A stretch of 61,959 bases of DNA from a virus. Lineage: Duplodnaviria > Caudoviricetes. The notes beneath the pieces are model-generated. The model was not told the origin of the DNA. It made no database searches and worked only from the letters and a program-made list of their open reading frames with translations. The translations under genes were made by a program, and so were the position numbers. Shown here piece after piece: positions 1,206-61,077 of this stretch. Within the stretch, counting starts at the first letter, position 1. Every line of letters begins with the position of its first letter. Where the stretch lies: positions 1 through 61,959 of IMG/VR virus record IMGVR_UViG_3300005573_000100; one strand, written 5' to 3'.

Positions 1206-2027
1206 CTATTTGTTTCTAAGCATAGAGTAACCAGCTAACTCACCAGCTGTAGGAGTTCTAACACGATACAAAGCTCTACCAGAAGGGCCTGGTGGCCCAA
1301 GTGGGTTAACCCCAGGTTTAGCAACTGCTTGAGGTATAGCCCCAGGAAAGATAGAAGCAATCTGTGGTTTAACTGCTGGAAATGAACTAACTGGCAACGA
1401 GCTAAGAGGATTAATAGTATTGAACCCTAATTTTTCAAGACCACTCCTTAATTCGTCAATCAACTCTTCCACTGTTGGCAAAGCAGAAGCCTGTTTGTTT
1501 TGCCTACGCCCTAATAAGTAGCCAGCAAGTAAACCACCACCAAGCCAGGGAGCAAGTCTGCCCAAACCTCCGAATGCTTCTGGAGCTCTTTGTGCAAGTG
1601 CTTCGGCGATTGATCTCTCTGCCCTTCGTCTTGCTAAAAGTGCTGCAACAGTTCCGACTCCAGCAAGTGTGCCGGCGGCTCCTAATCCAGCAGCAACAGG
1701 GTGTCTCGATATAGCAGACAAAAGAGCCGACGCTGTCGGCGTTGATGTTGGTGTTTTTTGTTCTGCCCCCTGTTGTTTTGGCTGATTTGCCCATGAAGGA
1801 GTCCATGGAGCACCAGGGTGTCCTGTCATGGAAGCCAAGAGAGGTGATGGTGCTTCTTCCGTTGTATCAACCGTTGTATCAACAACCGGCTTTTTAACTT
1901 TCCTAAATGCCAAACGTGCTTTCCTGTTCAAATCCGCAAGTGCTCTATTTACAGCTGCTTGATATGTGGGATATGCCCAAGGGTCGATACCCTGTGCATT
2001 GTCTGCCAATTTTTGCAAAGTGTTCAT
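1206..2027 (-). CDS. Gly/Ala-rich putative virion (internal/ejection) protein with two hydrophobic segments
   Basis: AGGAGG RBS; HPVAAGLGAAGTLAGVGTVAALLARRR and PWLGGGLLAGYLLGRR segments; KLA/KQAS motifs. Confidence 0.6.
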   Translation of the reverse strand: MNTLQKLADNAQGIDPWAYPTYQAAVNRALADLNRKARLAFRKVKKPVVDTTVDTTEEAPSPLLASMTGHPGAPWTPSWANQPKQQGAEQKTPTSTPTASALLSAISRHPVAAGLGAAGTLAGVGTVAALLARRRAERSIAEALAQRAPEAFGGLGRLAPWLGGGLLAGYLLGRRQNKQASALPTVEELIDELRSGLEKLGFNTINPLSSLPVSSFPAVKPQIASIFPGAIPQAVAKPGVNPLGPPGPSGRALYRVRTPTAGELAGYSMLRNK

Positions 2028-2080
2028 ATCAATCCTCCTAAAAAATACTAATGCATGCTAAAAGGTTAGTATAGACAGAA

Positions 2081-2836
2081 CTAACTATACAAAACATTTC
2101 CTACATTACTCCAAAGTTCATTTAGTCGCTTTACTGCCGCTTTATATCTATTACTACCAGGTGGGATATACTCTTTACCATAACTAATTCCACATGATTT
2201 TAGTAACGAATACTCGCCAGTAACCATCCTTACAGCGGCCATAGCTTTCCACAGTTGTCTATCATGCTGGAGATACAACCTGTTACTCTCTCTAAGTAAT
2301 ACGTCAGGGGCTATATGACCAGCTATTCTAGGCGCATCTAAACGCTTGAAAATCAATCCTTTAGTGTATCTATCAGCTAGTTCTTTTTCATCAAGTTCGT
2401 GGGCTATTACTAATTCTTTTAGTTTCCTTAGTTGCTCTTTATTTAGCTTTACTCCACCAAGAGGTCTCTTAGGAAGAATAGCTTTAGCAGTACGCAAATA
2501 GTCTTCTAAATCCGTAAGTTCTTGTATCTGCCGTTTTCGTTTTTCTGATAGCGCACTAATTACTCTATACGATGGAATTGCATGTGACCAATAGGTCTCT
2601 AAGAGACCTTTTCTTCTTAAAAGTTCTATCAGGGCTTGCTCATTGAAATGTGGGGCATCTTTAGGTATTCCTCTAATTTTTCTGATGAGGCTATCTATAG
2701 TAGAACTTGGGAAACCCATAAGCACCTTTGAATACGCCGGACCGTATTTCTTTCTGGCTTTTGGAAATTTAGAAAGCTCAACAAGAGCTTTTGCCCTTTC
2801 AAAGTTAGGATCAACCCTATTCGACCTAGTACTCAA
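2081..2836 (-). CDS. Hypothetical protein with HExxE...H (possible zincin-like) motif
   Basis: TTG start after GAGGT; VIAHELDE...AGHIAPDVLLRESN. Confidence 0.55.
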   Translation of the reverse strand: MSTRSNRVDPNFERAKALVELSKFPKARKKYGPAYSKVLMGFPSSTIDSLIRKIRGIPKDAPHFNEQALIELLRRKGLLETYWSHAIPSYRVISALSEKRKRQIQELTDLEDYLRTAKAILPKRPLGGVKLNKEQLRKLKELVIAHELDEKELADRYTKGLIFKRLDAPRIAGHIAPDVLLRESNRLYLQHDRQLWKAMAAVRMVTGEYSLLKSCGISYGKEYIPPGSNRYKAAVKRLNELWSNVGNVLYS

Positions 2837-2873
2837 ACTTCATACCTCTAACTAAAAAAATACAATAAGTTAG

Positions 2874-5800
2874 TTATTTTGTCTTCTTGTCCATTATTTG
2901 AGAAACGTCAGCAAAGTCAGTGCCGTATACTAAATCTGGGATTGGATTAAACGACTGAAGTTTAGTTTTCCCCCCAGTTATAGCCGCTTCAATAACACTT
3001 GTTTTAATGCGCTCGAAATTCAGCTTTGTCATCCAGTCACTTCCAACCTCCAGAGGTAGAACATTAATTCCTTTCAACACCGGTTTATATTTAACCGGAG
3101 GCAATTCTACTTTAACCTGGTCAGGAAGATGAGGCAGCATTTTTCTGTCCACAATTGTGCCTTTCTTGAATCCTTTGTAATTTTCCAATAGTTTCCCACC
3201 GACAGCGTTTCCTTTAGAAACCTCTGCAAATCTACCAGATTTGTTGAACCAGTTAGCATGGTTCAGTGGCACAAGATCTCCTTCTAACCAATGCGGATGG
3301 CCGCCTCTATCGTCTACTTCTGCTACATTAGTCAAGGCCTTTACTATGAGTTCAACATTAGTTCTTCTAATAGGAGTTTGTGTCCGAAGTAAATTGTATA
3401 TCTCATCAACCAACTTATTTCTAGTTCCTTCAACCCCGACAAGCTCCATATGTTTTCTTGGATTAAATAGTCCTGTAGAAATTGGCTGACCCTTAGTAAC
3501 CTTGTCGCCTACAGAGACTGTTACTTTCCTGTCAGAAGGAACCCAATGAGTAACCTTATTTATTACTATCTCTGTCCCTAAAGGCTTTTTGTGTATGGCT
3601 TCAACTTTTCCAAAAGTCTGGGCTAATACTGATTCTCCTGATAAATTCTCTGGGAATGCCAAAAGTTGACGTAGTCTATTAAAAGGAGATATTTGCGCGC
3701 CAACAGCGCCTCCAGTATGCCACCCAGAAAGAGCAAGCTGTGAACTTGGTTCGCCTATGGCATGTGCAGCAGATACCCCGACGAACTCGCCTAGCCTATG
3801 TTCTTTTCCACTTGGGTTCAATCCCATACATTTCTTACAAACCCCATGAGGAGCCTGGCAATTCAAAGGGGATCTAACTTCTAATTCTTTGATCTTAGCC
3901 TTCTTCGCTTCGGACAAAAGTTCCGGAGTAATTATTGTATTCCTACGATATACTTTACCATTTATGGTCACATCGTTAGGCAAGTACCTTCCCAGAATTT
4001 GGTCGTCATCAACACTCATATAAGTGCCCTTTTTAACCCCACAGTCATCGGAGGTCACTCTAACGTCTAATACTGATGCCAGCATTTGTTTCGATAACCA
4101 ACCAGGGTCTCTAATTTCACGAGCTTTTCCAGAAACCAGACCGGATCTTGCCCCAAGCATTGATGTAAAATAATCGGTCACATCCATCCCAGCACCATAA
4201 CCAGATTTTATAGGAACAGTAATCAATTTCCCGTGTTGCTCTACTAGACCAGGCCCGACAGTCATTTGCAGAAGTTGCCCAGGGTTACCTCTTGCTCCAG
4301 ATTCAACCATTTTGTAAAGAAACGAATCTTTTGGAAGAGTTTCCAATGCTTTTTTCTCTATGGCCGCTTTCGCAGATAGTAAAATCTTAGTTTTCTTGTC
4401 CTGATCTTTAGTATTGGCTGCCATGCGCTCAGCTTTGTCCCAGACCCGTTTAGTATATTCCTGTAAGGATTTAGGCACTTTTACATCTTCTATACCCATG
4501 CTGACGCCATATCTAAATGCATAGTCATTACCAAGAACTCTTAGCTTTTCAACTACCGATGGATAGTCGTTAGGATGTTTATGCCCGATGTCTGAAAGTA
4601 GTTTGGCAAGATTTTTACCAGTTAAAACATCTACCTCATAGCCTTTGGGCAGTGCCTGTTGAATAAGTATTCTTCCGGCAGTAGTCCTTTTCCCTGCGAC
4701 AGTTACTTCCTCATTAAGGGAAACCTTTTTCTCATTTACAGCAGTCATCAAATCTTTTACCGAATCGAATTTCTTATCCGATTTTTTCTCCACACGTGAT
4801 AAAAGGTATAGCCCCATCAACCCTTCGTGTCTTGGGGCGTACAAAGCCTTTCCTGATGTAGTGGAAAACAGGTTGTTGGAAGGTAATAAATTTTGTAGCT
4901 CTTTTACAGCGTTTTCTGTTACGGGAGTAAACACAGAAAACGCATCTCCATCAAGGTCTCCACCGAAACCCTGTAAGGTCAATGGGTGGATGTGTATAGC
5001 TTCTCCAGAAACAAGTTTGGGGTAAAAAGCCATCACATTATAACGATGCAATACCGGGTCTCTCTTTAATAATACAGGTCGCTCTTTCATTTCTCTTTCT
5101 AAGGCTGTCCTTGCGGCCGGAACTTTGTTTTTTACCATCTCAGTAGCCTGTAGAGTTGTGTAACCGGCTCTGGTCAATCTCCTTATAACTAAAGGACCAA
5201 AAATTGTCCAAGCCATTTTCTCAGGAAGTCCCACTTCATCAAGGGGCATACTTTCTTTAGGAACGACAATGACAGCCCTTGCACTTAGATCCTGCCTCCG
5301 CTTCAAAAGTGATTGTTGGAAATATCCTAATTTAGGTTGTGGTCCTGCTATAATATCGAGAACAGACCTATATTGCTTAGACCCAACTGAAAGCCCATTC
5401 ATCTGTAACGCCTCAAGGGCAGAATAAACTGACGAATAAGCATCTGCTTGTTCTTTATCTGTTAGCTCCTTTGCTTGTTTAAGTTGTTGATTTAGAATAC
5501 CAATGTTTCTATACAGTCCATTCAGGTCATTAACAGAAATACTTCTATCCTTAGTCTCGGTTATAGGCCTAAAATAAGGAGGGATAACCAACACATGCTT
5601 AGTCATGTAAACATCTTCGGGGTTTCTTTTCAACTCAGCAAGATGACGAAGTATTCTAATTTTTCTGGCCAGTTTTGCCCGCTCATTACCTGATGTGTTC
5701 TTTATTCTTTCTTCTGATTCTGCCAGCTCCTTTTTCACATCAAGCGTGGATAGCAATTTCTTAAAGGCTTTATCAAGACGGTATTTTCCATCTGGTGATA

Positions 5801-8800
5801 ATTTGCCATCGTCAGTAACACCCAATTTACCCTGTATTAGCTCATCATATTGAGTCCTTGTCATACCGAACAGAATGGCAAAAGCATCCTTGTAAATAGG
5901 ATTAGGAAACGACGCATTAAGTGTAATATGAGAATATTTAGTCCCTGTAATACCACCTGTTTTAACAGGGTCAAACAAACCGCCAGGTTCTTCTCTTAAA
6001 TCTTTACCCCTAATTATTTTGGTTGGGTCTATTTCACCTGAACTAAGCTTGAGAATATCTTCGTCATACAGTGGGTATAGCTGCAGCACATTTCCTGTTT
6101 TCTTTACATCTACTCCGAGCGTGCGCAAATAGTCGACAAATTTTTTATAGGGGACCGGCACAGATGGAGGTGGAAGAGGAGCTCCAGATTGCAAAGCGAA
6201 CCAAAACTCAGGATTCGCCGAACTTTTATATGTCTGCATTTCATACAGATTCTTCAATGCCCCATGAGCAAGCATCGCATAAAGACCAAGATGACCTAAA
6301 GATTGGGCTCCTTCTCCACCTAAAGGAATGGAATCATAAGAATACTTTTCCCCTACCCCACCTCCACGAGCAGTAGCTTTCGTCAAAGCAGTATGTTTAA
6401 GCTTCAAAATATATTCTGGACCCACCAGAACAGGATGCTCTGTTTTGACCCCTGTCGTCGGGTCTATTAGATATTCTTTGTCAGAAATTCTATGCTCTTT
6501 CAGTTCTTTCTCTATTTCTTCAAGGTCGCCTTTCTTAAATTGAGCGACCATCTTAGGTTTTCCTGTTTTTTCTGCTATCTTTCCAGCAGCTGCCTCTAAT
6601 ACTTGACCAAAATTGAGTCTTGAAGGTATACCAAGCGGGTTCACAATTACATCTATGGTCTTTCCTGATTCTGTTTTCGGCATCTCCGCATCTGGGACTA
6701 TGTAAGTTATTATTCCCTTAGGAGCGGCTCTAGTACTCAGTTTGTCCCCGACCTGAGCAGGTTCTTCTGTTTCTATGTAGACATCTATATTTTTGCCTTT
6801 TACAACCCTTACAACTCTACCTCTAAATGGGTTAGTCCAAGTAACAGTTTTATTTTTCCAAGGTTGATACAATTTCTTTGAGAACCTTGCTAAGAGAAGC
6901 TCTTCAGGTTTTGGTTGTATGTCGTGTTGGAGTACCGCTATTAAAGGATCTCCTTCATCAACATACTCACCTTCCTTAATTACTCCATCAGAATCCAGCT
7001 TATTCAACTGATTAGTATTAAAAATCCCAGGATACAAAGCGAGTAGCTTATTTTTGGATACAGCTATTCCTTTTGAAGTATAAACATTCTCTCTATACAA
7101 ATGGCGTGATGTTAGCTTTTTAGCTGCACTTTCAGATACCACTATTCCGTCCTCAAAGTTTAATCCTTTGTATGGAACATAAGCAACTAAAAGATTCTTA
7201 CCTATCTTGAGTTTTCCTTGTTTATCTGTAAAATTTGTTTCACTAACAATATCTCCCTTTTTAACCTTGTCGCCTGGTTTGACTATTGGGGTAGAATGGG
7301 CGTAACCACCGTCTTCAAGAGGGAAATAATTAAGAAGAGGAACTTTCGCCACGTTCTTTCCAGATTTTATTACTATGTGGTCTTTGGTTACTTTGGACAC
7401 AACACCGTCAATAGGCGATTCAACCATCGGGAACGCGGCTCTTCCAACATCAGACCAACCGTGTCCTTTCGCCACTTCAACATCAACTAATGGATGATCA
7501 GCATCGACAAGAGGTAGGCTCTGTTCAATATGCTTAGTAGCAAGAAGAGCTCTATTACCAGAATCATGAGCTAAAAAAGGTATACCCAAAGAAGCTATGT
7601 CGAAAAGTGCCTCCGGCACATCAAACATATAATCTACCTTGCTGGCTGGTATATCTACTATTTCATGCTTATGGATTGCTTTTACTCTAGGAGAAACAAA
7701 ATTAATCTTGCCGTCTACGATTTTTACCTGATCTGGAAGAACCACAAAAGATTCAAAAGCTTTCTCAGGTGTTATATAAGTGTATTGCTTATTTTTAACA
7801 TCCCACACCTTGGAGACTAAAGAGTCTCCTTTCTTTTTGGCTCCAGCAGCCATATGAACAACCAGCCCAGCTTTTGAATTGTCTGGAGTCATTATCGGGT
7901 CCAAAAAACCAAAAGTAGATGGATCCAATTGCTGTTGTTTCTCTACAATCTGGTCGAGAGATGAGATACCACCTTCTCCCAGAACCGTAACCTTAGACCC
8001 AGACGAAGCAATATCTACAGGGTTTACTTGAGAAGGAAGCCCGACAACTTGGCTGGAGGTAAAAAAAGTAAGAATAGGATGAGAAAAATGTTCAGATATA
8101 ACAATCTTAGATATATCATTTAGCCTGTCGAGTCTTGCTAAAGTTCTGTTGTGCAAAACCTGTTTGGATTTTAGTATCCTTTCTTTCAAAAAATCAGCTG
8201 TATCTATTGGGGTTTTGAATGCGAGGGAGTTTTTATCATCCTCCTTAGCCATACCTTTAGAAACACCAATAACTTTTTTTGTGGCAAGTAATAACACATT
8301 CCCATCTACTTTAGAGAAAGATCGTCCAAGCGTCAATTTAGAAACGTTTGGATCAAGCACGGTCTCGTTGAATACTTTACTAATATCCTCAGGGTTTACC
8401 CCTAGCGCCCTAGCAAAACGAGCAACCGTTTTTTCTCTGTCTTTTATGTTTGCTTTATAAATATCTTCTCCGACTAATGATTTTAGTTCTTGCCCAGAAA
8501 CTCCGAGATGCTCTAGTATCGGGAATAGTGGAAGTTCTGAAGACCCATAGTTGAAACTAAATATCCTTGTAGTAGGGTCAAAAACAACAGCGGCACTTTT
8601 ACCTCTTAGGTTAACTAAATTAAGTTTGGCTTGAATAGTTCCATCCTCTTTACGCTCTGTGTAAACCCCAGGCTTCAACCTAAGCTGTATAGGAACAGTA
8701 TATTCAGTGCCACCCACAATATATGAATATCTATCTGTCAATGCAGGAAGATGCGCCAAAGTCATTTTCTTCCGATCCAACACCTTTCCTGTGGCTTTAT

Positions 8801-53143: not shown

Positions 53144-53647
53144 TCAAATGTGTTTGTCTACATATGAAGCTACTTTTGAATTTTTCCTCAGCTTTCTAAT
53201 AAGTGCGTTGACATCCTTCCTTTTGACTTTCACATATGGTTTTATTACCTCGCATATCCAGAGTATTCCAACATTGGATATTATTCTGAAGTTATATAAA
53301 AGTTGTTTGCCTGACCTGGGTAGCAAATATATTTTACCGAGTGGTATCTTTTTCTTTAGCCATTTTATTAACGGATAACATGTATTGGCTATAGCCAAAC
53401 GATCTCCTGAAAAAGACCCTTCTCCGTCTATGATTCCAGCTATGTAAGAAGCATCCCACTCAGTTAGTTTAGGAAGTTTTGGGAAAACCTCTCTTGAAGC
53501 AATCCTAAGTTCGCTGCGCATACGTTTAATAGCATCTGCAGACCTGTTAAGTTCTTTGGATAATTTGTCTAAATCTATGGAGCGTTTTCTTCTAACAAAT
53601 GAGATGCGTTTTATCTCTTGTTTCGTCCAGCGTCTACCAGTCATCAA
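53144..53647 (-). CDS. Free-standing LAGLIDADG homing endonuclease with N-terminal HTH
   Basis: ASYIAGIIDGEGSF; IANT...LI.WL; IKPYVKVKR; N-terminal RRWTKQE...LNRS.DAI. Confidence 0.85.
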   Translation of the reverse strand: MMTGRRWTKQEIKRISFVRRKRSIDLDKLSKELNRSADAIKRMRSELRIASREVFPKLPKLTEWDASYIAGIIDGEGSFSGDRLAIANTCYPLIKWLKKKIPLGKIYLLPRSGKQLLYNFRIISNVGILWICEVIKPYVKVKRKDVNALIRKLRKNSKVASYVDKHI

Positions 53648-53964
53648 CCACCACTAAATCTTCTATACAGCAAATATGCAGGTATTCCAAGTGCAAGTAG
53701 CTTACCTTTAAGAGCATTTTCTTTCATTAGTAATCGAGACATCTCTTTGTTGTATCCAGGCGGTCTTAGAGACCTGGCAAGAAGACCAAACGAGCCGAGC
53801 ATAAAAGCAGGACCAACAACAAGAGGGGCTATCTCAAGTGCTGCATCAAGATTCTTCTTATTAGCCAAACCCTTAAGTCTATTTAGTGCAGGAAAAGGCT
53901 TAACATTAGATTCCACCTGTTTAATTTCTCCTGCCTGAGGAATATGTTGGTCATGCTCGTCCAT
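53644..53964 (-). CDS. Small hydrophobic hypothetical protein
   Basis: Two hydrophobic segments; leaderless TATACT-7-ATG. Confidence 0.6.
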   Translation of the reverse strand: MDEHDQHIPQAGEIKQVESNVKPFPALNRLKGLANKKNLDAALEIAPLVVGPAFMLGSFGLLARSLRPPGYNKEMSRLLMKENALKGKLLALGIPAYLLYRRFSGG

Positions 53965-54046
53965 ATTGATTAGTATATATTATTACTAATAAATCGTATA
54001 GAGCAAATACTAATTCTGTACAACTAAAAAATAGGCATTTTTTTGT

Positions 54047-54064
54047 TATAACAATTACTGATAG
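54047..54064 (+). promoter_or_regulatory. Class A motif driving the Ubl operon
   Basis: ttttttgtTATAAcaattacTGATAGg. Confidence 0.6.
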
Positions 54065-54099
54065 GCAATTTCCCCAAAACCAGAAAGGAGAAGAGTAAT

Positions 54100-54321
54100 A
54101 TGGATGCGATTACAGGTTTTTTCATTGCGCTTGTCTTAGCGGCAAGCTACTTTGTAGGATGGATAATGACTTTTAACTTCTTGCATCAGAAAGACGAAAG
54201 TTCCCCAATAGCAGAAAAAATAGTTGTTGCTATGTTCTGGCCGATAATCTTCTCGATCAGAGCAGCCGCAATAATCGGTAAGTGGTGGAGGGACCACCAC
54301 AAAGAACTAACCAATACCTAA
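54100..54321 (+). CDS. Small two-TM membrane protein
   Basis: AGGAG RBS; two hydrophobic helices, FWP motif. Confidence 0.7.
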   Translation: MDAITGFFIALVLAASYFVGWIMTFNFLHQKDESSPIAEKIVVAMFWPIIFSIRAAAIIGKWWRDHHKELTNT

Positions 54322-54339
54322 AAAAAGGAGGTAAAAAGT

Positions 54340-54543
54340 ATGAAAGTAAACATAATCCAGATGGGTCATGCACTAAAGGCTGTGGAGATTAACGAAAACT
54401 CCACGGTTAGGGAAATCCTTGAGAAAGCAGATTTAGACGCCGAACACCACATTGTTACCCTGAATGGAAGGGAAGCATCATTAGATGACACAGTGCATGA
54501 AGGAGACATCATAGGGTTGGCTCCTATCGCAGAAGTAGGATAA
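54340..54543 (+). CDS. Ubiquitin-like beta-grasp protein (ThiS/MoaD-like)
   Basis: 67 aa; STVREIL, VTLNG..ASLD..VHEGDII.LAP, C-terminal Gly (AEVG); AGGAGGT RBS. Confidence 0.88.
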   Translation: MKVNIIQMGHALKAVEINENSTVREILEKADLDAEHHIVTLNGREASLDDTVHEGDIIGLAPIAEVG

Positions 54544-54583
54544 GTCTGTTTTATTCTGTTTTGGGGGACAAATTGCCAAAGAA

Positions 54584-54629
54584 GGGCAGGGGAGATATTG
54601 GGTTCACAAACTCATTATCTCCTTTGCCC
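54584..54629 (+). other. Long RNA hairpin between Ubl and downstream genes
   Basis: GGGCAGGGGAGATA/TATCTCCTTTGCCC plus an inner stem, with G-U pairs on the + strand; no U-tract. Confidence 0.6.
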
Positions 54630-54652
54630 AAATAAAAAAAGGAGGAATAAAA

Positions 54653-54853
54653 ATGCCAAAATTACAATGTAAAAATTGCGGCAATAAAGATAAATTTCTT
54701 GCAAAATGTGTTTACTCAGGTATTGTGGATGGGAAAGGAAAAAAATTAGTCGACTTTTCAATGGATGATCCACCAGAGTACCAATGTGCGAAGTGCGGTT
54801 CGAGCAAAATCAAAATAACTTTCGATAAGGAGGGAACATGGATATATTTGTGA
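54653..54853 (+). CDS. Zinc-ribbon protein
   Basis: CKNCGN...CAKCGS; AGGAGG RBS. Confidence 0.7.
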   Translation: MPKLQCKNCGNKDKFLAKCVYSGIVDGKGKKLVDFSMDDPPEYQCAKCGSSKIKITFDKEGTWIYL

Positions 54854-56154
54854 CAAATTATTTAAGAGAAAGACTGGATGCAGCTGGTCATACAGATGTT
54901 AAAATAGTATTAGCTGATCAGCTACCAGAAGACTTCAGTCAAAAGCAGCTTGTAGTTCTTCAGCCTAAAGACGACTGGGTAGAAAAAACAGTTCATGTGA
55001 ATGATTGGTCCTTTATAACTCGCGAGGGACCTCTTCGCATCCTCGAAAAATGGGTTTCACTTGATGGTGTTCTGATTGCCACAGGTTTAGGCAATACTGT
55101 TATCACAAACATAGACCTGGATAAAGCAATTGTCAACGATACAGAGCATATGTATATCAGAGCAGGGATCTCCGACCACATTATAAGCATGTTCGAAGAC
55201 GCTTGGCATCCCTTGGATTATTTTGCCAATTTAGGAAAATCACTTAACAAACTCAAAGGAGAATTCAAATCAACTTTGAATCACCTAAACGCGGTAATCA
55301 CCGATCACAGGACGAAAATTGCAGAGGAAACGAAAAAACTAAAAAAATACAAAGATATTGCTGAAAAATTAGATCCTGAAAAAGAGATTGAAGCAGAAAA
55401 AAAGCTGTTTCTTGAAATGCTTGAGATATTTTCATTGACAGGAGCATATGAAGATGCCGACGGACTAACGCTTGAGCTAAAAACACCACGTATAGAACTT
55501 GATGACTATGACCTTGGAGAGCTATCAGTACAGATTAAATTCCCTTCTGGGGAGGTAGTAATAGATGCACTAAAAGAGGGAAACTGCGATTATTGCCACC
55601 CCCATGTATCTTCTAGTGGAACCCCTTGTTTTGGGGGATATGAGGAGGTTTTTCATGAAGTTGCTTCGCAAGGGAGGGTAGGGACAGCGCTATCTTTGAT
55701 TTGGATGTTTTTGAAAACCTACAATCCAGAAAGCGCTTATGAACATCCAGAGGTTATAGAACATGGTTACTATAGAGAAAGCGATGATTATGATGAACCG
55801 GATTTTGATGAATGTGCAGAAAGGGCATTAGGAGGACAGTGCTATATATGCAGGTATCGAAGTGACTGCGACTACTCAGAAGATAAAATTCAAGAATGTA
55901 AGGATGTCCTTCCGCAGGTTTGCCATGGCTGTTCATATAATTTTTCTTGCACTTTACGCGTGGATATAGACCGTTGGAGAACCTGCGCAAAGTCAGCCAA
56001 GGGGGGTAAATGTGTTGATTGTGTCGAGGATGAATGTCCTTACGCAGACCCCTGTATAGATAGATGCAAGGACAATGCATCCGAAGAATTCTGCAAAAAT
56101 TGTGCATTCAAACCGTGTCCAATCTACAAGGATGCAATCGAACAAGGAGGATAA
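54838..56154 (+). CDS. E2/UBC-fold conjugating enzyme with coiled-coil and four Cys4 repeats
   Basis: HPHVSSSGTPCFG has the same His-to-Cys spacing as eukaryotic HPNI..NG.IC; FLKTYNP.SAY; four C-x7/8-C-x2-C-x4/5-C repeats. Confidence 0.75.
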   Translation: MDIFVTNYLRERLDAAGHTDVKIVLADQLPEDFSQKQLVVLQPKDDWVEKTVHVNDWSFITREGPLRILEKWVSLDGVLIATGLGNTVITNIDLDKAIVNDTEHMYIRAGISDHIISMFEDAWHPLDYFANLGKSLNKLKGEFKSTLNHLNAVITDHRTKIAEETKKLKKYKDIAEKLDPEKEIEAEKKLFLEMLEIFSLTGAYEDADGLTLELKTPRIELDDYDLGELSVQIKFPSGEVVIDALKEGNCDYCHPHVSSSGTPCFGGYEEVFHEVASQGRVGTALSLIWMFLKTYNPESAYEHPEVIEHGYYRESDDYDEPDFDECAERALGGQCYICRYRSDCDYSEDKIQECKDVLPQVCHGCSYNFSCTLRVDIDRWRTCAKSAKGGKCVDCVEDECPYADPCIDRCKDNASEEFCKNCAFKPCPIYKDAIEQGG

Positions 56155-56156
56155 AA

Positions 56157-57329
56157 ATGCCTGGTTTTAACGAGTACCTTAGAGATATATTAGTTTCCGT
56201 AATCACTGCTCCTATTGAATTAGTGTTAGCAGGAGCAAACATAACTGAAGAAGAAATCATGCCTGACACTGTATATTGCCCTTCTTGGAGGGGTGAAAAA
56301 ACTACCGTCACAATAGATGACGGTAAAAGAAAGGCCGTAGTAATTGCATGTCTAAATAAGTCATGGCATGGTGATCTTGTATACTGGAGGAATTGTATTC
56401 CGATAGCATCTATAAAAGACAACAGCGTTATTTTCCTCATCGACTTGGAAGAACTTTTCCATAGCCTACCAACGGAACAACTTGGTTTGTTCAACGAACT
56501 TGTCATAAGTGTTTTGAACAAATACAACGAAATAAGAAATGCACCCAAAAAAGCAGATGTGAATACAGTGCTTGAATGGATTGACAAGTATATTAGCTAT
56601 TACCCATCTAAACTCCGAAGTGACATTGGAGCTCTGGAAAGACAAATACAACGCGATGTACAAGAACTATCAGAAGAATACAGGAATTACCTACTCGTCG
56701 ATGGGGTATGTAAATCTTTATTCCAGCCCCAACCAATACAGGCATGGCGTGAAGACCAACTTGACGCCTTGCGAGAATCTGGTTTTGAAATAATACAACT
56801 AACACCAGGTAACAAGGGTATCAAAGAACTAGTAGCAGTATCCCCATCGATATGCATCGAAGAAGACTACACAAAGTATGTTTTGGGAAGGTACCTTGTA
56901 GATTTTGAACAGCATAGGGATAATGAACTAATAATAATGCCACTTACCAAAACTCCCGAAAGGAGGTATTTTCATCCCCACATCACACCTGAGGGCGTTC
57001 TTACAGATATTGTGAGGGCATGTATAGCTGTAGAATATCTTCGTGCATATAATGTAGGAACTGCCTTGTTGAAAATTAGATACATTCTCGAAACTTACAA
57101 TCCTGATCAGGCACTCATGTCGATCCAAAAGATATGTGGGGAAACATCATGTGAAGATAATCCAACGAAGGAAAAATGTATGATATGTGAAAAAGTTGGA
57201 ATATGCAAAGCATCTATTGAACTTGTAAAAGCATGCACAACTGCCATAGATAAGGGTGAATGCCAAAACTGCAATATTTACGAAAAATGTAAAATTGGAA
57301 GGAGGAATAATGACGAAAGACAAGAATGA
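56157..57329 (+). CDS. E2-fold paralog lacking the active-site Cys, with two Cys4 repeats
   Basis: AGGAGG RBS before MPGFN; HPHITPEGVLT; VGTAL......LETYNP shared with 54838. Confidence 0.65.
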   Translation: MPGFNEYLRDILVSVITAPIELVLAGANITEEEIMPDTVYCPSWRGEKTTVTIDDGKRKAVVIACLNKSWHGDLVYWRNCIPIASIKDNSVIFLIDLEELFHSLPTEQLGLFNELVISVLNKYNEIRNAPKKADVNTVLEWIDKYISYYPSKLRSDIGALERQIQRDVQELSEEYRNYLLVDGVCKSLFQPQPIQAWREDQLDALRESGFEIIQLTPGNKGIKELVAVSPSICIEEDYTKYVLGRYLVDFEQHRDNELIIMPLTKTPERRYFHPHITPEGVLTDIVRACIAVEYLRAYNVGTALLKIRYILETYNPDQALMSIQKICGETSCEDNPTKEKCMICEKVGICKASIELVKACTTAIDKGECQNCNIYEKCKIGRRNNDERQE

Positions 57330-57942
57330 AAAAGGCTATCTAACTACACCAGTAATATACTTGACACCAGAGGTTAGAGTCAGATTGACAACTTGGTTGG
57401 ATCTAGCGGATGGCGAATTTCTTGCATTTGGAGCAGCCGACTATTTTCCACCGGATGGAATAGTCGTAAATGACATATTCCTGCCTAAACAAACAGCCAC
57501 GTCATGCAATGCACTTTCAGACGGAAAGTGGATGATTGAATTTATGAATTTTTTGCAAAATCAAACAAACCCGGAGAAAATTAGATTCTTCTATCATTCC
57601 CATGGGTATTTGAATGCGTTCTTCTCCAACGTAGACGAAGACATGATGAGACGTCTATCTTCGGATACCTTCTTCGCTCATATGGTGGAGAACAAGAAAC
57701 GAGAATATGTGGCAAGGATAAATCTTTATGATCCGTTTCGTGTTGATGTAGAAGCGTGTGTGGATGTTCTTTACTCATGCCCAAAAGAAATAATAGAACA
57801 GGCTGAGAAAGAATTTACAGACAAGGTAGTTCAGCAAGAATTATATGGCGGTTTAGATGTTTGGAAAGATTTAGGTCCTTGGAGGAATTTCGATGAACCT
57901 ATATCAGAGACAGTACAAACTGTTCAACCCAGAAGAAAATGA
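57310..57942 (+). CDS. JAB/MPN+ metalloprotease (deubiquitinase-like)
   Basis: GEF...DIFLPKQ...YHSHGYLNAFFSNVD = E..HxH-x7-S-x2-D; GGAGG RBS. Confidence 0.9.
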   Translation: MTKDKNEKGYLTTPVIYLTPEVRVRLTTWLDLADGEFLAFGAADYFPPDGIVVNDIFLPKQTATSCNALSDGKWMIEFMNFLQNQTNPEKIRFFYHSHGYLNAFFSNVDEDMMRRLSSDTFFAHMVENKKREYVARINLYDPFRVDVEACVDVLYSCPKEIIEQAEKEFTDKVVQQELYGGLDVWKDLGPWRNFDEPISETVQTVQPRRK

Positions 57943-58606
57943 GCGTATAAGAATAGATGTAATAGGCGCTGGGTCTATGGGGTCATTTGCATCTTTGGCA
58001 ATAGCGAAGATGGGACTAAAAAAGATTACTGTGTATGATTTTGATAAGGTTGAGCAGGTAAACATACCAAATCAGTTTTATAGGCTGAGTGATGTTGGGG
58101 CCGCTAAAGTAGACGCCCTAAAAGACATAATTAGTCAATACACAGGTACCAACATAGTCGCTGAGTGTGGAAAGTTTCAGGAAAGGTACAAGCCAAAAGC
58201 AACAGATATAACCATAGTAACAGTAGATTCCTTGGATCAAAGGAAAGAAATATGGGGGCTAATCAAACACCACACTAGATGGGTAATAGATGCTAGAGCC
58301 GCAGGAGAATTCATAGTCATCTATGCCCTGCAACCAGAACTCGACAGTTTTAGATATGAATCCACATTGCGCCCTTCGTCAGAGGCCTATAGAGCCCCTT
58401 GTGGAGCTCAATCCATAATATACACTGTGATAGGAACAGCCAGTGTAATAGCCCTATACACAAAGCGTATTTTGTTTGGTTTGCATGTTCCGTTTGAAAC
58501 AATGTTGGACTTCGCACTATTAAATGGATGTAAAGATGGAAGGTTTGCTTTTCTGCCGACAGATAATGAAAAAACTGAACAGAAAGGAGATAACCATGAG
58601 GAATGA
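57893..58606 (+). CDS. E1/ThiF-family adenylyltransferase
   Basis: YQRQ, VIGAGSMGS, ITVYDFDKVE..N..NQ, VG..KVDAL, TVDS...R, IDAR; candidate Cys in APCG. Confidence 0.92.
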   Translation: MNLYQRQYKLFNPEENERIRIDVIGAGSMGSFASLAIAKMGLKKITVYDFDKVEQVNIPNQFYRLSDVGAAKVDALKDIISQYTGTNIVAECGKFQERYKPKATDITIVTVDSLDQRKEIWGLIKHHTRWVIDARAAGEFIVIYALQPELDSFRYESTLRPSSEAYRAPCGAQSIIYTVIGTASVIALYTKRILFGLHVPFETMLDFALLNGCKDGRFAFLPTDNEKTEQKGDNHEE

Positions 58607-58757
58607 AGAAAGAGAACGGCTTGGATTATGTTTGAGATGTGAAAAACCACTCAAACCAGAAGAATGGAAATACTGTGAGGAATGTGCACTATATGTTGCT
58701 CAACGGAACGCTGAAGGGTGGAAAAAAAGCGCATACACCGACCGCTTGGATTATTGA
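58596..58757 (+). CDS. Small zinc-finger protein
   Basis: AAGGAG RBS; GLCLRCEKP.....KYCEEC. Confidence 0.65.
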   Translation: MRNEERERLGLCLRCEKPLKPEEWKYCEECALYVAQRNAEGWKKSAYTDRLDY

Positions 58758-58992
58758 CGGCGACGATGTTGTTGGAGTTAGAAAACTAAAAGACGGAGAC
58801 TATATCGCGGTTGGTGATTACCCCTTTCAGCCTAAATATCCACCAGACATCAAAGTCTATGCCACCGAAAAGGAAGCTTGGGAGGCATACCATAAAATTG
58901 TAAATTCGTGTGACCATGACTATCAGATGATTTCTCATGATGAAGCCAAATGCAGAAAATGCGGGAATATAATTTGCGTTCCTGATATGTAA
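58693..58992 (+). CDS. Hypothetical protein with C-terminal CxH..CxxC
   Basis: CDHDY.....KCRKCG; start uncertain. Confidence 0.55.
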   Translation: MLLNGTLKGGKKAHTPTAWIIDGDDVVGVRKLKDGDYIAVGDYPFQPKYPPDIKVYATEKEAWEAYHKIVNSCDHDYQMISHDEAKCRKCGNIICVPDM

Positions 58993-59013
58993 TGAACCAG
59001 AAAGGAGGAAAAA

Positions 59014-59244
59014 ATGAGCACACGTGTTTTATGGGTTCTTGCAGGCATTGCTATGATTACTTGGATAATTCCTGGTATTGGATTCGTAGTATCAATAATA
59101 GGAATTGTTGGGGCATTGAAAAATATTTTCACAAACAAGAAAAATGACGCAGTCAGTATAATTACTCTGGCGATATTCACAAGCTCACTGCTTTTGTCGT
59201 CAGTTTATACACTTGGAAGGGTACTTAACTTTATATTCCAATAG
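59014..59244 (+). CDS. Small multi-TM membrane protein
   Basis: AGGAGG RBS; hydrophobic throughout. Confidence 0.7.
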   Translation: MSTRVLWVLAGIAMITWIIPGIGFVVSIIGIVGALKNIFTNKKNDAVSIITLAIFTSSLLLSSVYTLGRVLNFIFQ

Positions 59245-59254
59245 AACTAAAAAT

Positions 59255-59290
59255 GGGGGAGAAGCAAACTAAGTCTTCTCCCCTTTTTTT
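59255..59290 (+). terminator. Intrinsic terminator closing the Ubl operon
   Basis: ggggagaag/cttctcccc stem followed by TTTTTTT. Confidence 0.75.
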
Positions 59291-59292
59291 AC

Positions 59293-61077
59293 CTAAAACA
59301 CAAGTCTAGCTAATCTTTGTAAAAGACCTGGTTGTTGATTACCGGTCTGTGGACTAAAAAGACCGAATACCGGTCCAGGGGAAGAATGGGCTTGTTCTTT
59401 TTTTCTTAGCCTTGGAAGTAAACTTTCTGGTTTAACATCCTTTTCGGGAATTACCATCTTGCGGAAATTCCATCCTGGTCTCCACTGCCACCAATGCTTG
59501 GGCTCCTTCTGCAACTTAATTGTAGCAGCTGCTGGAGCTTCTTGGATCGGTTTTCCAATATCCTCCCTACTCCGCAGCATCTCTCTAAGTTCTTGATTTA
59601 ATTTATTTTTATTTATAGCTACCGTGTATTTCCATTCCTCTAAGGTTTTGGGAACTGGTCTATTCAGCAAACGGCTCCAAAATGAAGGTTTCATAACAGT
59701 GTAGTAACGTCTTACAATGACCTTTCTTTGCTCAGGAGGAAGATAAGATAGACCTTTTAATCTTACACCTCTCGCTTCCATCTGTAGAATTCTTTCTGGG
59801 TTATAATGAGGGTCAGCTATGGCCACAAATGTCGTATTGGGGAAACTTAATCCTTCTGCTCCTGCAGGAGACAGAATCAAAACCTTTATTTTTCCTTTGT
59901 TATATGCATCTGCAGCTTCCTGTCTCTGTAGTTCTGCAGGAACGTCCTCTCTGCCTTTTCCCATGAAGACCCCAAACTTGATTTTTCTATCTTTCAACCC
60001 CTGAGCTATTACGTCTACGCCACCAACCACATTATTGGTGAATATAAGAACTTCTCCTTTAGGATTGGCCCTAAGATGTTGCTCTACGTCGTCGAGTATT
60101 TTTTTGATTTTTGGAGTTTGCTCAGCTGCCTCCGATAGGCTTACTTTCGGATCCACAACATGAATGCTATTGCTAATCTGCTGAGCCCTAATCAATTTAG
60201 TTACTATAGCCTCCGCTTCCTTCATCGTTACAGGGATTCCTCGTTCTATTTTTAGCCTTGTTATTGGATCTATCGTCCCCATAACATATTTGTATCCTTG
60301 CTCTTGTAACGGACTCATTTTCACAGGGACCCATTCAACTACTTTACCGGGCATATCCAATTTTTGGGTCAACGGATCAAGATAATAGATATTATCTTTG
60401 AAGACCTTACGGAGTGTATCAATATCTTTTAAAACCCATACTTTCGCAACGCTGCCATCTGGAAAGACCTTCTTTACTTTTTGTAAAAATCTTTGTTTGA
60501 ACTCCTGCGGCGAGCTTACTGGGAACTTTTTACCTGTAACCGCCATCATAACCGGCACAAGTTCGGCTGGAGTATTGGAAGACGCTGTTCCTGTTAAGCC
60601 AATGAAATACTTTACTTTAGGAGAGGCGTACATTAGTGCCCTAGCAGTCAGGCTATCGAAGTTTTTGGCTCTGTGTATTTCATCCGAGATTATACCATCT
60701 ATAGGTTTACCATCTGGTGTCTGTAGGTATTTGTCTGGGTTTTCACGAAATAGCTCATAAGATATTATATTGTAATTTACATTTCCCTTTCTCTTAACTG
60801 TTTTTACATGTTTGTCTCTCCCATACCAGATAGTTACAGAGTCGTTAGTCCATTTCTTTACTTCCTCCTCAAAATTACTCCGTAGAGCAGCCGGGACTAT
60901 CACAAGGAAGTTCAAAGGTCTCTGCTCCTTCTGTGCCAGAGCTTCTGTGGACGCAATAGTTCCAAGAGTCTTACCAGAACCAACAGAAGCCAATATAAAC
61001 AGTCTTCCATTGTTCCTAAGAGCCGAACTAACCATCTCCTGCTGATGAGGCTGAAGTTCTGTCCCTTTCTTTAACAT
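59293..61077 (-). CDS. SNF2-family helicase/ATPase
   Basis: LQPHQ, VGSGKT, VIVPA.L..NF..E..KW, IISYE, DEIHRAKN, LTGT...N...EL, AGAEGL, YNP...Q..AR..R. Confidence 0.92.
   Translation of the reverse strand: MLKKGTELQPHQQEMVSSALRNNGRLFILASVGSGKTLGTIASTEALAQKEQRPLNFLVIVPAALRSNFEEEVKKWTNDSVTIWYGRDKHVKTVKRKGNVNYNIISYELFRENPDKYLQTPDGKPIDGIISDEIHRAKNFDSLTARALMYASPKVKYFIGLTGTASSNTPAELVPVMMAVTGKKFPVSSPQEFKQRFLQKVKKVFPDGSVAKVWVLKDIDTLRKVFKDNIYYLDPLTQKLDMPGKVVEWVPVKMSPLQEQGYKYVMGTIDPITRLKIERGIPVTMKEAEAIVTKLIRAQQISNSIHVVDPKVSLSEAAEQTPKIKKILDDVEQHLRANPKGEVLIFTNNVVGGVDVIAQGLKDRKIKFGVFMGKGREDVPAELQRQEAADAYNKGKIKVLILSPAGAEGLSFPNTTFVAIADPHYNPERILQMEARGVRLKGLSYLPPEQRKVIVRRYYTVMKPSFWSRLLNRPVPKTLEEWKYTVAINKNKLNQELREMLRSREDIGKPIQEAPAAATIKLQKEPKHWWQWRPGWNFRKMVIPEKDVKPESLLPRLRKKEQAHSSPGPVFGLFSPQTGNQQPGLLQRLARLVF

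Follow-up and report, generated by a model that had tools for sequence, protein, structure and literature searches.

A phage ubiquitin-like conjugation operon with a coupled pair of E2-like paralogs, one lacking the catalytic cysteine, that are predicted to join through a coiled coil

In the Ubc13-Mms2 pair, the ubiquitin E2 variant (UEV) contacts its UBC-fold partner directly. Bacterial conjugation of ubiquitin-like proteins (Ubls) by the Bil, Bub and CBASS Cap2 systems has been described so far as host defence in the published reports considered here. The genes of the Bil operon for the Ubl, the conjugating enzyme (E2), the JAB protease and the activating enzyme (E1) are arranged in the order Ubl-E2-JAB-E1. 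The E2-like proteins of the 6c and 6d operons were described as being without the classical His, and the Cys-less Bub E2s were first called inactive (PMC1779556). The Bub E2 and E1 have been reported to work via oxyester intermediates, with S333 and H335 as the residues named in BubB (10.1101/2024.11.21.623953). Here, we analyzed a 61,959-base virus record from IMG/VR (the window), which carries an operon encoding a Ubl, a JAB protease, an E1 and two adjacent E2-like proteins that we call E2a (54838-56154) and E2b (56157-57329); the operon and all genes in it lie on the + strand. E2a is a catalytic-type member of an E2-like family marked by an HPH motif, and E2b is a Cys-less paralog from the same family. 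Our overall reading is that E2a and a non-catalytic E2b are translationally coupled paralogs that form a predicted coiled-coil pair within a phage Ubl-conjugation operon, and we hold this reading, taken as a whole, to be about evenly poised between right and wrong.

The preliminary description of this stretch proposed two adjacent paralogs. Both open reading frames (ORFs) were present, and their products share 22% identity over 252 aa (BLASTP, E = 1e-5). E2a is 438 aa long and its gene ends in a TAA stop codon at 56152-56154. The E2b ORF opens at 56064. We take the ATG at 56157 as the likely start, which yields a protein of 390 aa ending at 57329, because a Shine-Dalgarno sequence (AAGGAGG, 56144-56150) lies inside the final codons of E2a. 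Given the position of this site within the 3' end of E2a and a spacing of 2 nt between stop and start, we conclude that E2a and E2b are translationally coupled. The two proteins had also been said to share an architecture of N-domain, coiled-coil, E2-like core and Cys tail, and we found the same layout in both AlphaFold2 models, which were built with 70-row alignments (mean pLDDT 79.7 for E2a and 74.8 for E2b). Each model has a beta-rich N-domain, then one helix of about 55 residues and an alpha/beta core, and closes with a Cys-rich tail that is helical in part. DSSP analysis of the models placed the long helix at aa 125-177 in E2a and aa 135-189 in E2b. Together with UBC helix alpha1 (aa 180-197 and 194-208, respectively), this helix makes up the predicted coiled-coil interface, which spans aa 125-197 in E2a (55210-55428) and aa 135-208 in E2b (56559-56780). 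The UBC-like core occupies aa 178-310 in E2a (55369-55767; assigned by fold match, with pLDDT 93-98 across most of the core) and aa 197-331 in E2b (56745-57149; assigned by Foldseek and VIA-align).

Both cores carry HPH and VGTAL...TYNP, and the motifs and spacings first quoted for them proved correct. In E2a, HPH is at aa 254-256 (55597-55605) and Cys264 follows at +10 (55627-55629), so that the active-site motif reads HPHVSSSGTPC (55597-55629). In E2b, HPH is at aa 273-275 (56973-56981), position +10 is Thr283 (57003-57005), and a Cys is found only at +16 (Cys289, 57021-57023); the degenerate active-site segment as a whole (56973-57023) reads HPHITPEGVLTDIVRAC. As a separate observation, a CxxC directly precedes HPH in E2a and its ortholog (CDYC and CKYC; window 55585-55605), where most relatives have G-Y-x. 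Together with His254, His256 and Cys264, this CxxC could make the active center a site of metal binding or redox chemistry.

The preliminary description likened E2a and E2b to the Ubc13-Mms2 heterodimer and proposed an obligate pair that positions the acceptor Ubl or substrate; such positioning, and the building of Ubl chains, would be conjecture here, and so would the obligate nature of the pair. We predicted the complex of E2a 1-312 with E2b 1-330, each with its 70-row alignment, in three runs accompanied by 3 controls. The pair scored 0.77 and the best of the 3 controls scored 0.00; of 80 solved complexes, 58 attained that mark, as did 2 of 110 mismatched pairs. At least 70% of the contacts agreed across the three runs, and the pLDDT of the partner was at least 72. 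The predicted interface brings E2a 136-195 against E2b 131-189 in an antiparallel arrangement (188 with 142, 184 with 146, and 192 with 135), and E2a core residues 200-212, 235-236 and 278-281 also contact the E2b helix. Thus, the likeness to Ubc13-Mms2 lies in the concept of an active subunit joined to an inactive one, and does not extend to the predicted interface, an antiparallel coiled coil. Taken together, these models predict an E2a-E2b heterodimer formed through an antiparallel coiled coil.

Several findings, which we give here and with the alternatives below, weigh against our reading of a catalytic E2a paired with a non-catalytic E2b. The first is that the complex prediction cannot separate a heterodimer from homodimers: the same 70 sequences are present in both alignments, and close cousins of true partners pass. 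It is therefore conceivable that there is no specific heterodimer, that each protein homodimerises by its own coiled coil, and that E2b serves as a non-catalytic Ubl or E1 binder, a regulator or a decoy. To place this alternative among relatives, we used loci recovered with a degenerate DNA motif pattern that requires the Cys codon, which gave 26 viral and 72 genome-contig loci, many of them short. A single gene of the family was present in 22 of the 26 viral and 69 of the 72 genome loci, which makes homodimers plausible and suggests that the ancestral state was probably a homo-oligomer. The Type II Bil E2 is also said, in a published figure legend, to form homodimers, and the unequal lengths (438 and 390 aa) and tail units (four and two) of E2a and E2b count on the same side. 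Counting residue pairs along the antiparallel register did not discriminate among A-B, A-A and B-B pairing (E2a = A, E2b = B). The net charges of the long helices are opposite (+5 in E2a and -2 in E2b), a weak hint in favor of the heterodimer. Further arguments against separate homodimers are the tight translational coupling, the conservation of the adjacent pair in a related metagenome contig (L100), and the confidence with which the heterodimer was predicted. We consider separate homodimers rather unlikely, though likelier than the other alternatives.

The asymmetry at the active site is central to pairing a catalytic E2a with a non-catalytic E2b, and the status of the Cys among homologs had been put forward as a check. 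HPH is present in 149 of 151 stored proteins, and the other two are a C-terminal fragment and a protein that has HPN with a Cys at +10. E2b proved to be the sole one of the 149 HPH-bearing proteins without a Cys at +8 to +11; nine further candidates from the same screen proved to be variants with HPHPH or a double Cys, in which the Cys is present. Both of our views are biased toward Cys-bearing members, because the stored proteins are the 150 best-scoring of the 405 and a Cys codon is demanded by the DNA pattern, and this bias tempers the apparent uniqueness of E2b. E2b also lacks the G-N that follows the family Cys. In the E2b ortholog P0152, which is 92% identical, the segment reads HPHITPEGVPIDNVRTC, with Ile in place of Thr283. 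Four of the eight residues at +8 to +15 differ between E2b and P0152, compared with 32 of 390 overall. This pattern fits relaxed constraint on the former active-site loop, as judged from these two sequences, and the excess is a rough estimate that is not significant once scanning is allowed for. With these results, we conclude that the catalytic/Cys-less asymmetry of E2a and E2b is well supported.

Cys-less Bub E2s, formerly called inactive, use Ser to form oxyesters, which counts against equating loss of the Cys with loss of activity, and for this reason an "inactive" label for E2b needed testing. We considered Thr283 as the nucleophile of an E2b oxyester and rejected it, because the residue is Ile in P0152. 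A second candidate is Cys289, which is conserved in both E2b orthologs and could be a shifted nucleophile, another point against a non-catalytic E2b. Cys289 aligns with a variable column of the family (Glu270 in E2a and "x" in the consensus) and lies inside a predicted helix (285-296); for these two reasons, which derive from alignment and model, Cys289 is unlikely to be the nucleophile. The wider alternative is that E2b is catalytic through a non-canonical nucleophile, either Cys289 or a hydroxyl that forms an oxyester as in Bub, and that the operon supplies two E2s with different chemistry or targets. The conservation of Cys289, the retention of HPH and structural motifs under purifying selection, and the oxyester precedent of the Bub E2 and E1 (BubB S333/H335; 10.1101/2024.11.21.623953) argue for it. 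The Ile in the ortholog, the variable column and helical position of Cys289, the missing G-N, and the absence of this arrangement from every other one of the 149 HPH-bearing proteins argue against it. On balance, we regard a catalytic E2b as unlikely and keep to a non-catalytic E2b.

Relatives with more than one family gene bear on the same asymmetry in two ways. Two family ORFs occur at 4 of the 26 viral and 3 of the 72 genome loci, and two of the three genome cases resemble split genes (L035 and L064). At L003, L015, L019 and L059, the Cys of the core motif is kept in both copies; duplication alone therefore does not imply an inactive partner, which again goes against our reading. The other case comes from a phage record (G001), in which locus L103 has adjacent ORFs at 826-2028 and 1985-3238 that encode proteins of 401 and 418 aa with two domains each. 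The N-terminal domain is E2-like and Cys-less (AHPSVDESGNP and GHPYIYPEGRP; domain E = 1.3e-6 and 2.4e-9), and the C-terminal domain is canonical and Cys-bearing. That record holds at least three family genes and a second one (G003) holds three. With the L103 fusions set beside the neighboring E2a and E2b, the joining of inactive to active domains is seen to have arisen at least twice, once by fusion and once between adjacent genes, which suggests a repeated origin of asymmetric E2 dimers outside eukaryotes.

L100 has the same adjacent E2a/E2b pair, and the identity between window and contig is 92% for E2b and 86% for E2a. The NG86 dN/dS was 0.243 for E2b and 0.284 for E2a. From the dN/dS of E2b and the 92% identity of its ortholog, we conclude that E2b is maintained under purifying selection, and on the dN/dS value we rejected the idea that it is a dead gene. 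That E2b might be a decaying duplicate without function has in its favor the loss of the catalytic Cys and G-N and a weaker score against the family profile (85 bits, compared with 171 for E2a), and we think it most improbable, since the frame is intact over 390 aa, the ortholog is more conserved than that of E2a, and E2b still has HPH, VGTAL/YNP, two complete tail units and a Shine-Dalgarno sequence of its own. L100 also differs from the window past the E2b ortholog. At 7200-8287 of the contig, the JAB frame is cut to 70 aa, with a gap of 129 nt when compared with the window. The end of the contig has an ORF of 108 aa (matching P0004) that joins copies of a segment of the E2a ortholog and the 3' end of the E2b ortholog, the two parts being 98% identical to L100 5558-5702 and 100% identical to 7062-7188. 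This joined ORF is either the product of recombination between Cys-repeat tails or an assembly artefact.

An E2-like core in both proteins had been proposed from motifs, and profile and fold comparisons agreed with it. The family profile searched against the PDB gave UBE2L3 as the top match (E = 0.0057), in a gapless alignment that places HPH on HPN and the family Cys on Cys86. At E<=0.01, Pfam UQ_con was matched by 3 of 70 family members (best E = 4.7e-4); E2a and E2b themselves gave no match to UQ_con (PF00179) at E<=0.1, and the gathering score was not reached. The top Foldseek match was an E2 enzyme for the E2a model (E = 0.026, probability 0.92) and UbcH10 for the E2b model (E = 1.3e-3, probability 1.00). 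VIA-align superposed aa 178-310 of E2a on UBE2S (6s96_A; Z 7.3, rmsd 4.6 A, 120 residues aligned), and aa 197-329 of E2b reached Z 6.2 (rmsd 3.9 A, 109 aligned); among the VIA-align matches listed, the best 50 for each protein were all E2 entries, and chains of hMms2-hUbc13 (1j7d) and the TSG101 UEV were among the fold matches. A VIA search of E2a against all 48,161 representatives, which is independent of Foldseek, put E2s on top at Z 6.4, level with single-helix matches to the long helix. Thus, E2a combines an HPN-type motif with a Cys about 10 residues after the His, both predicted models have the UBC core topology at middling Z, and E2b in its model has the UEV trait of a UBC fold without the catalytic Cys.

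On the other side of the scale, the fold Z values are middling (6-7) and the sequence links to E2s are marginal (E = 0.006; 3 of 70). The genomic context, in which an E1, a JAB protein and a Gly-ended Ubl stand beside the family, gives extra weight to E2 identity. Three modest, concordant lines (profile-PDB match, UQ_con and folds) together with this context make the E2 assignment, although model-based in part, well supported. That the HPH proteins are no E2s, and that HPH and Cys instead bind metal in an alpha/beta domain of another kind whose association with Ubl, E1 and JAB means something else, would suit the lack of any assigned Pfam, NCBIfam, PADLOC or PHROG family, the fold Z of only 6-7 and the CxxC directly before HPH in E2a, and is hardly credible given the gapless motif match to UBE2L3, the E2 identity of all listed fold matches over the core, and the E1, JAB and Gly-ended Ubl that adjoin the family in a large majority of loci.

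We then delimited the family to which E2a and E2b belong. Direct look-ups of either protein gave no useful match in Pfam, PADLOC, PHROGs, NCBIfam or, by sequence, the PDB, and word-based homolog searches returned an 86% ortholog for E2a only and nothing new for E2b. A further word-based search, this time with the 70-row profile, yielded 3 proteins from 8000 scored candidates, which does not amount to a survey of Cys-less members. Clusters for the family in the Atlas are named "hypothetical protein" only and are mostly from Uroviricota. When 1.84 billion representatives (50% clustering) were searched with a profile made from E2a, the E2a ortholog and E2b, 405 proteins matched at E<=1e-3, and 25 did so at E<=1e-10. 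An alignment of 70 members gave the signature GYxHPHVxxxGxPCxGN ... FLxSYN followed by Cys repeats, with H254, P255, H256 and G227 invariant and C264 present in at least 90%. Against a leave-out profile of 67 relatives, made without the three rows of the window's own lineage (E2a, E2b and P0002), E2a scored 171 bits and E2b 85 bits (E = 4.6e-19 for E2b at Z = 1.8e9). In literature listings and abstracts, we found no paper on this E2-like family and none on a prokaryotic or phage E2-UEV pair, within the limit that members might be listed in operon tables that supplement the Bil and Bub reports. We conclude that E2a and E2b belong to an undescribed family of UBC-fold E2-like proteins that have HPH with a Cys at +10, an N-domain, a long helix and four-Cys repeats.

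A first search for related loci found no viral relative, and the degenerate DNA pattern was used instead. An E1 or JAB homolog adjoins the family member at 20 of the 26 viral and 63 of the 72 genome loci; JAB homologs do so at 17 and 46 loci, respectively, and all four genes were detected at 7 viral and 21 genome loci. Going by record titles, the 72 genome loci come from metagenome-assembled genomes (MAGs) of Myxococcota/Myxococcales (37) and Gammaproteobacteria (10), from candidate phyla radiation (CPR) bacteria (7), Planctomycetota (5) and other "Deltaproteobacteria" (3), and from others (10). Several Myxococcales MAGs have the Ubl-E2-JAB-E1 cassette on 3-5 contigs each (for example, L028/L043/L094/L095 and L039/L058/L078/L097, in the range L028-L099), and their ORFs are almost uniform, at about 361-363 aa, with the motif SYPHPHVSSDGVPCWGNLGPG. 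Such repetition suggests a multi-copy mobile element or a prophage family.

The tails of E2a and E2b are built from Cys repeats. E2a has four C-x7-8-C-x2-C-x4-5-C units (aa 326-427, 55813-56118), and E2b has two C-x8-C-x2-C-x5-C units (aa 332-378, 57150-57290). With looser spacing permitted, at least one four-Cys unit was found in 86 of 152 stored family proteins. The [4Fe-4S] loop of endonuclease III has the spacing C-x6-C-x2-C-x5-C. By analogy, the four-Cys tails may bind Fe-S or Zn; the only related match, from the family profile against the PDB, was a ferredoxin (E = 0.28). Neither the all-PDB VIA search nor the viral structure library yielded a fold for the N-domain or the tail. The matches in the all-PDB VIA search were E2 cores or single long helices, and four BFVD matches at E<=1e-3 had no functional name.

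The window, which has an estimated completeness of 34%, includes genes for a DNA polymerase, a DnaB-like helicase, a large terminase, a sigma factor and a UvsX-like recombinase, and from this set we conclude that it derives from a large tailed phage. The operon is tight, lies between 54100 and 58606 and encodes, in order, a small membrane protein, the Ubl, a zinc-ribbon protein, E2a, E2b, JAB and E1. Neighboring genes overlap by 16-50 nt, and E2a and E2b are 2 nt apart. The zinc-ribbon protein (54653-54853, 66 aa, CxxC...CxxC) has only weak Zn_ribbon matches and overlaps the start of E2a by 16 nt, and homologs of it were found only in the window and L100. The operon is flanked by three small ORFs with Cys motifs of zinc-ribbon type (54653-54853, 58524-58757 and 58639-58992, of which the latter two overlap), and all three have weak Zn-ribbon or FYVE matches only. 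Just upstream, an ORF on the opposite strand (53144-53647, - strand) contains YIAGIIDGEGSF, which we take to resemble the LAGLIDADG homing-endonuclease motif. A scan of 53500-59400 for promoters and terminators found sites in numbers no higher than in shuffles.

The Ubl (54340-54543) is a 67-aa, beta-grasp, ThiS/SAMP2-like modifier whose C-terminus, ...PIAEVG, directly precedes the stop codon. It matches Pfam SAMP2 (E = 1.1e-5; 26.2 bits, slightly below the 27-bit cut-off) and ThiS (E = 3.7e-4), and has a ThiS-like match in NCBIfam. The JAB/JAMM metalloprotease (57310-57942, 210 aa) carries the motif HSHGYLNAFFSNVD (HxHx7Sx2D), overlaps the end of E2b by 20 nt and matches Pfam Prok-JAB at E = 0.0032, under the cut-off. 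Ubl ORFs of relatives have GG near the end in 38 of 42 cases, and in 37 of those 1-5 more residues follow. In the window Ubl, one Gly stands exposed at the very end (..AEVG). Trimming may thus be needed for the Ubls of relatives and not for this one, and since the Gly is already exposed, the role of JAB here may be deconjugation rather than maturation. The E1 (57893-58606, 237 aa) is a single ThiF/MoeB-type adenylation domain (GAGSMGS) that matches Pfam ThiF over aa 4-197 (E = 1.9e-16) and both ThiF and PRTRC_ThiF in NCBIfam. It has no separate Cys domain; Cys170 lies within APCG, and 66 of the 69 homologs in the alignment conserve this column. The E1 may form a thioester with the Ubl via Cys170, or the E2 may attack the adenylate directly.

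These features can be assembled into a proposed mechanism. Judging from its family, the E1 would adenylate the C-terminal Gly of the 67-aa Ubl. E2a would then take up the Ubl as a thioester on Cys264, the residue that aligns with Cys86 of UBE2L3, and JAB would reverse or edit the conjugates. E2b, without the Cys and G-N, is most likely a non-catalytic subunit. Antiparallel coiled-coil pairing with E2a is predicted to give an E2 dimer with one active site, in which the N-domain and tail of E2b might act as a scaffold, a target binder or an acceptor binder. We tentatively propose that this phage E2/pseudo-E2 heterodimer is the conjugating core, that it is a UEV-like solution reached independently of eukaryotes, and that the Cys-less subunit chooses the target or acceptor; we would not yet expect all of this to prove right.

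If it does, a dimer with one active site could enable the phage to mark proteins of the host or the virion, or to assemble chains of Ubl. The UEV-like pair would then sit within a large, uncharacterised family of HPN-type E2s found in phages, Myxococcota, CPR bacteria and Planctomycetota, a family that keeps the eukaryote-type His-Pro-x...Cys signature and has no Pfam, NCBIfam, PADLOC or PHROG model. The complete Ubl-E2-JAB-E1 set is here carried by a phage, in contrast to the Ubl systems described as host defence. The family raises the questions of what phages conjugate and to which acceptors, how the Ubl is handed over from a 237-aa E1 to the E2, and which ligand the four-Cys repeats hold.

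Compared with canonical eukaryotic E2s (UBE2L3, UBE2S, Ubc13 and UbcH5), the phage proteins share the UBC core topology and, in the family, His-Pro-x followed by a Cys at +10. In contrast to those enzymes, the Asn of HPN is replaced by His in the phage family, a helix starts right after the Cys, and there are three extra modules (N-domain, long helix and Cys repeats). Among prokaryotic systems, one likeness is to BilABCD (Type I and Type II), the bacterial antiphage systems, with which the phage operon shares the order Ubl-E2-JAB-E1, a Ubl ending in Gly and the lack of an E3 gene. It differs in being phage-borne, in having two E2 paralogs, and in its E1, a 237-aa single ThiF domain where BilD has, in the published description, an IAD-AAD-CYS architecture. 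No chain of BilB was among the profile or fold matches listed for E2a and E2b, and no PADLOC model matched E2a or E2b (E<=0.1) or JAB. Unlike the 6c and 6d E2-like proteins as described, the phage E2 keeps the classical His in its HPH (PMC1779556). As a prokaryotic Ubl operon that combines JAB and E1 with an E2-fold protein devoid of the Cys (E2b), the phage operon resembles Bub (BubB; formerly the 6E/DUF6527 operons). Bub E2s are reported to have a conserved Ser/His pair and to form oxyesters, whereas Thr283 of E2b is Ile in the ortholog and a Cys-bearing paralog adjoins E2b; DUF6527 was not found among the 8 operon proteins scanned, the scan being limited to those. We conclude that the phage operon belongs with the Bil-like bacterial and phage Ubl systems, as a variant. 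The likeness to Ubc13-Mms2/Uev1a lies in the combination of a Cys-bearing UBC-fold protein with a Cys-less UBC-fold paralog, and by analogy an Mms2-like function of E2b can be offered as conjecture. In contrast to that pair, the predicted contact of the phage proteins is an antiparallel coiled coil of about 55 residues N-terminal to the core, E2b keeps HPH, both proteins have extra N-domains and Cys-repeat tails, and the modifier is a 67-aa ThiS/SAMP-like Ubl.

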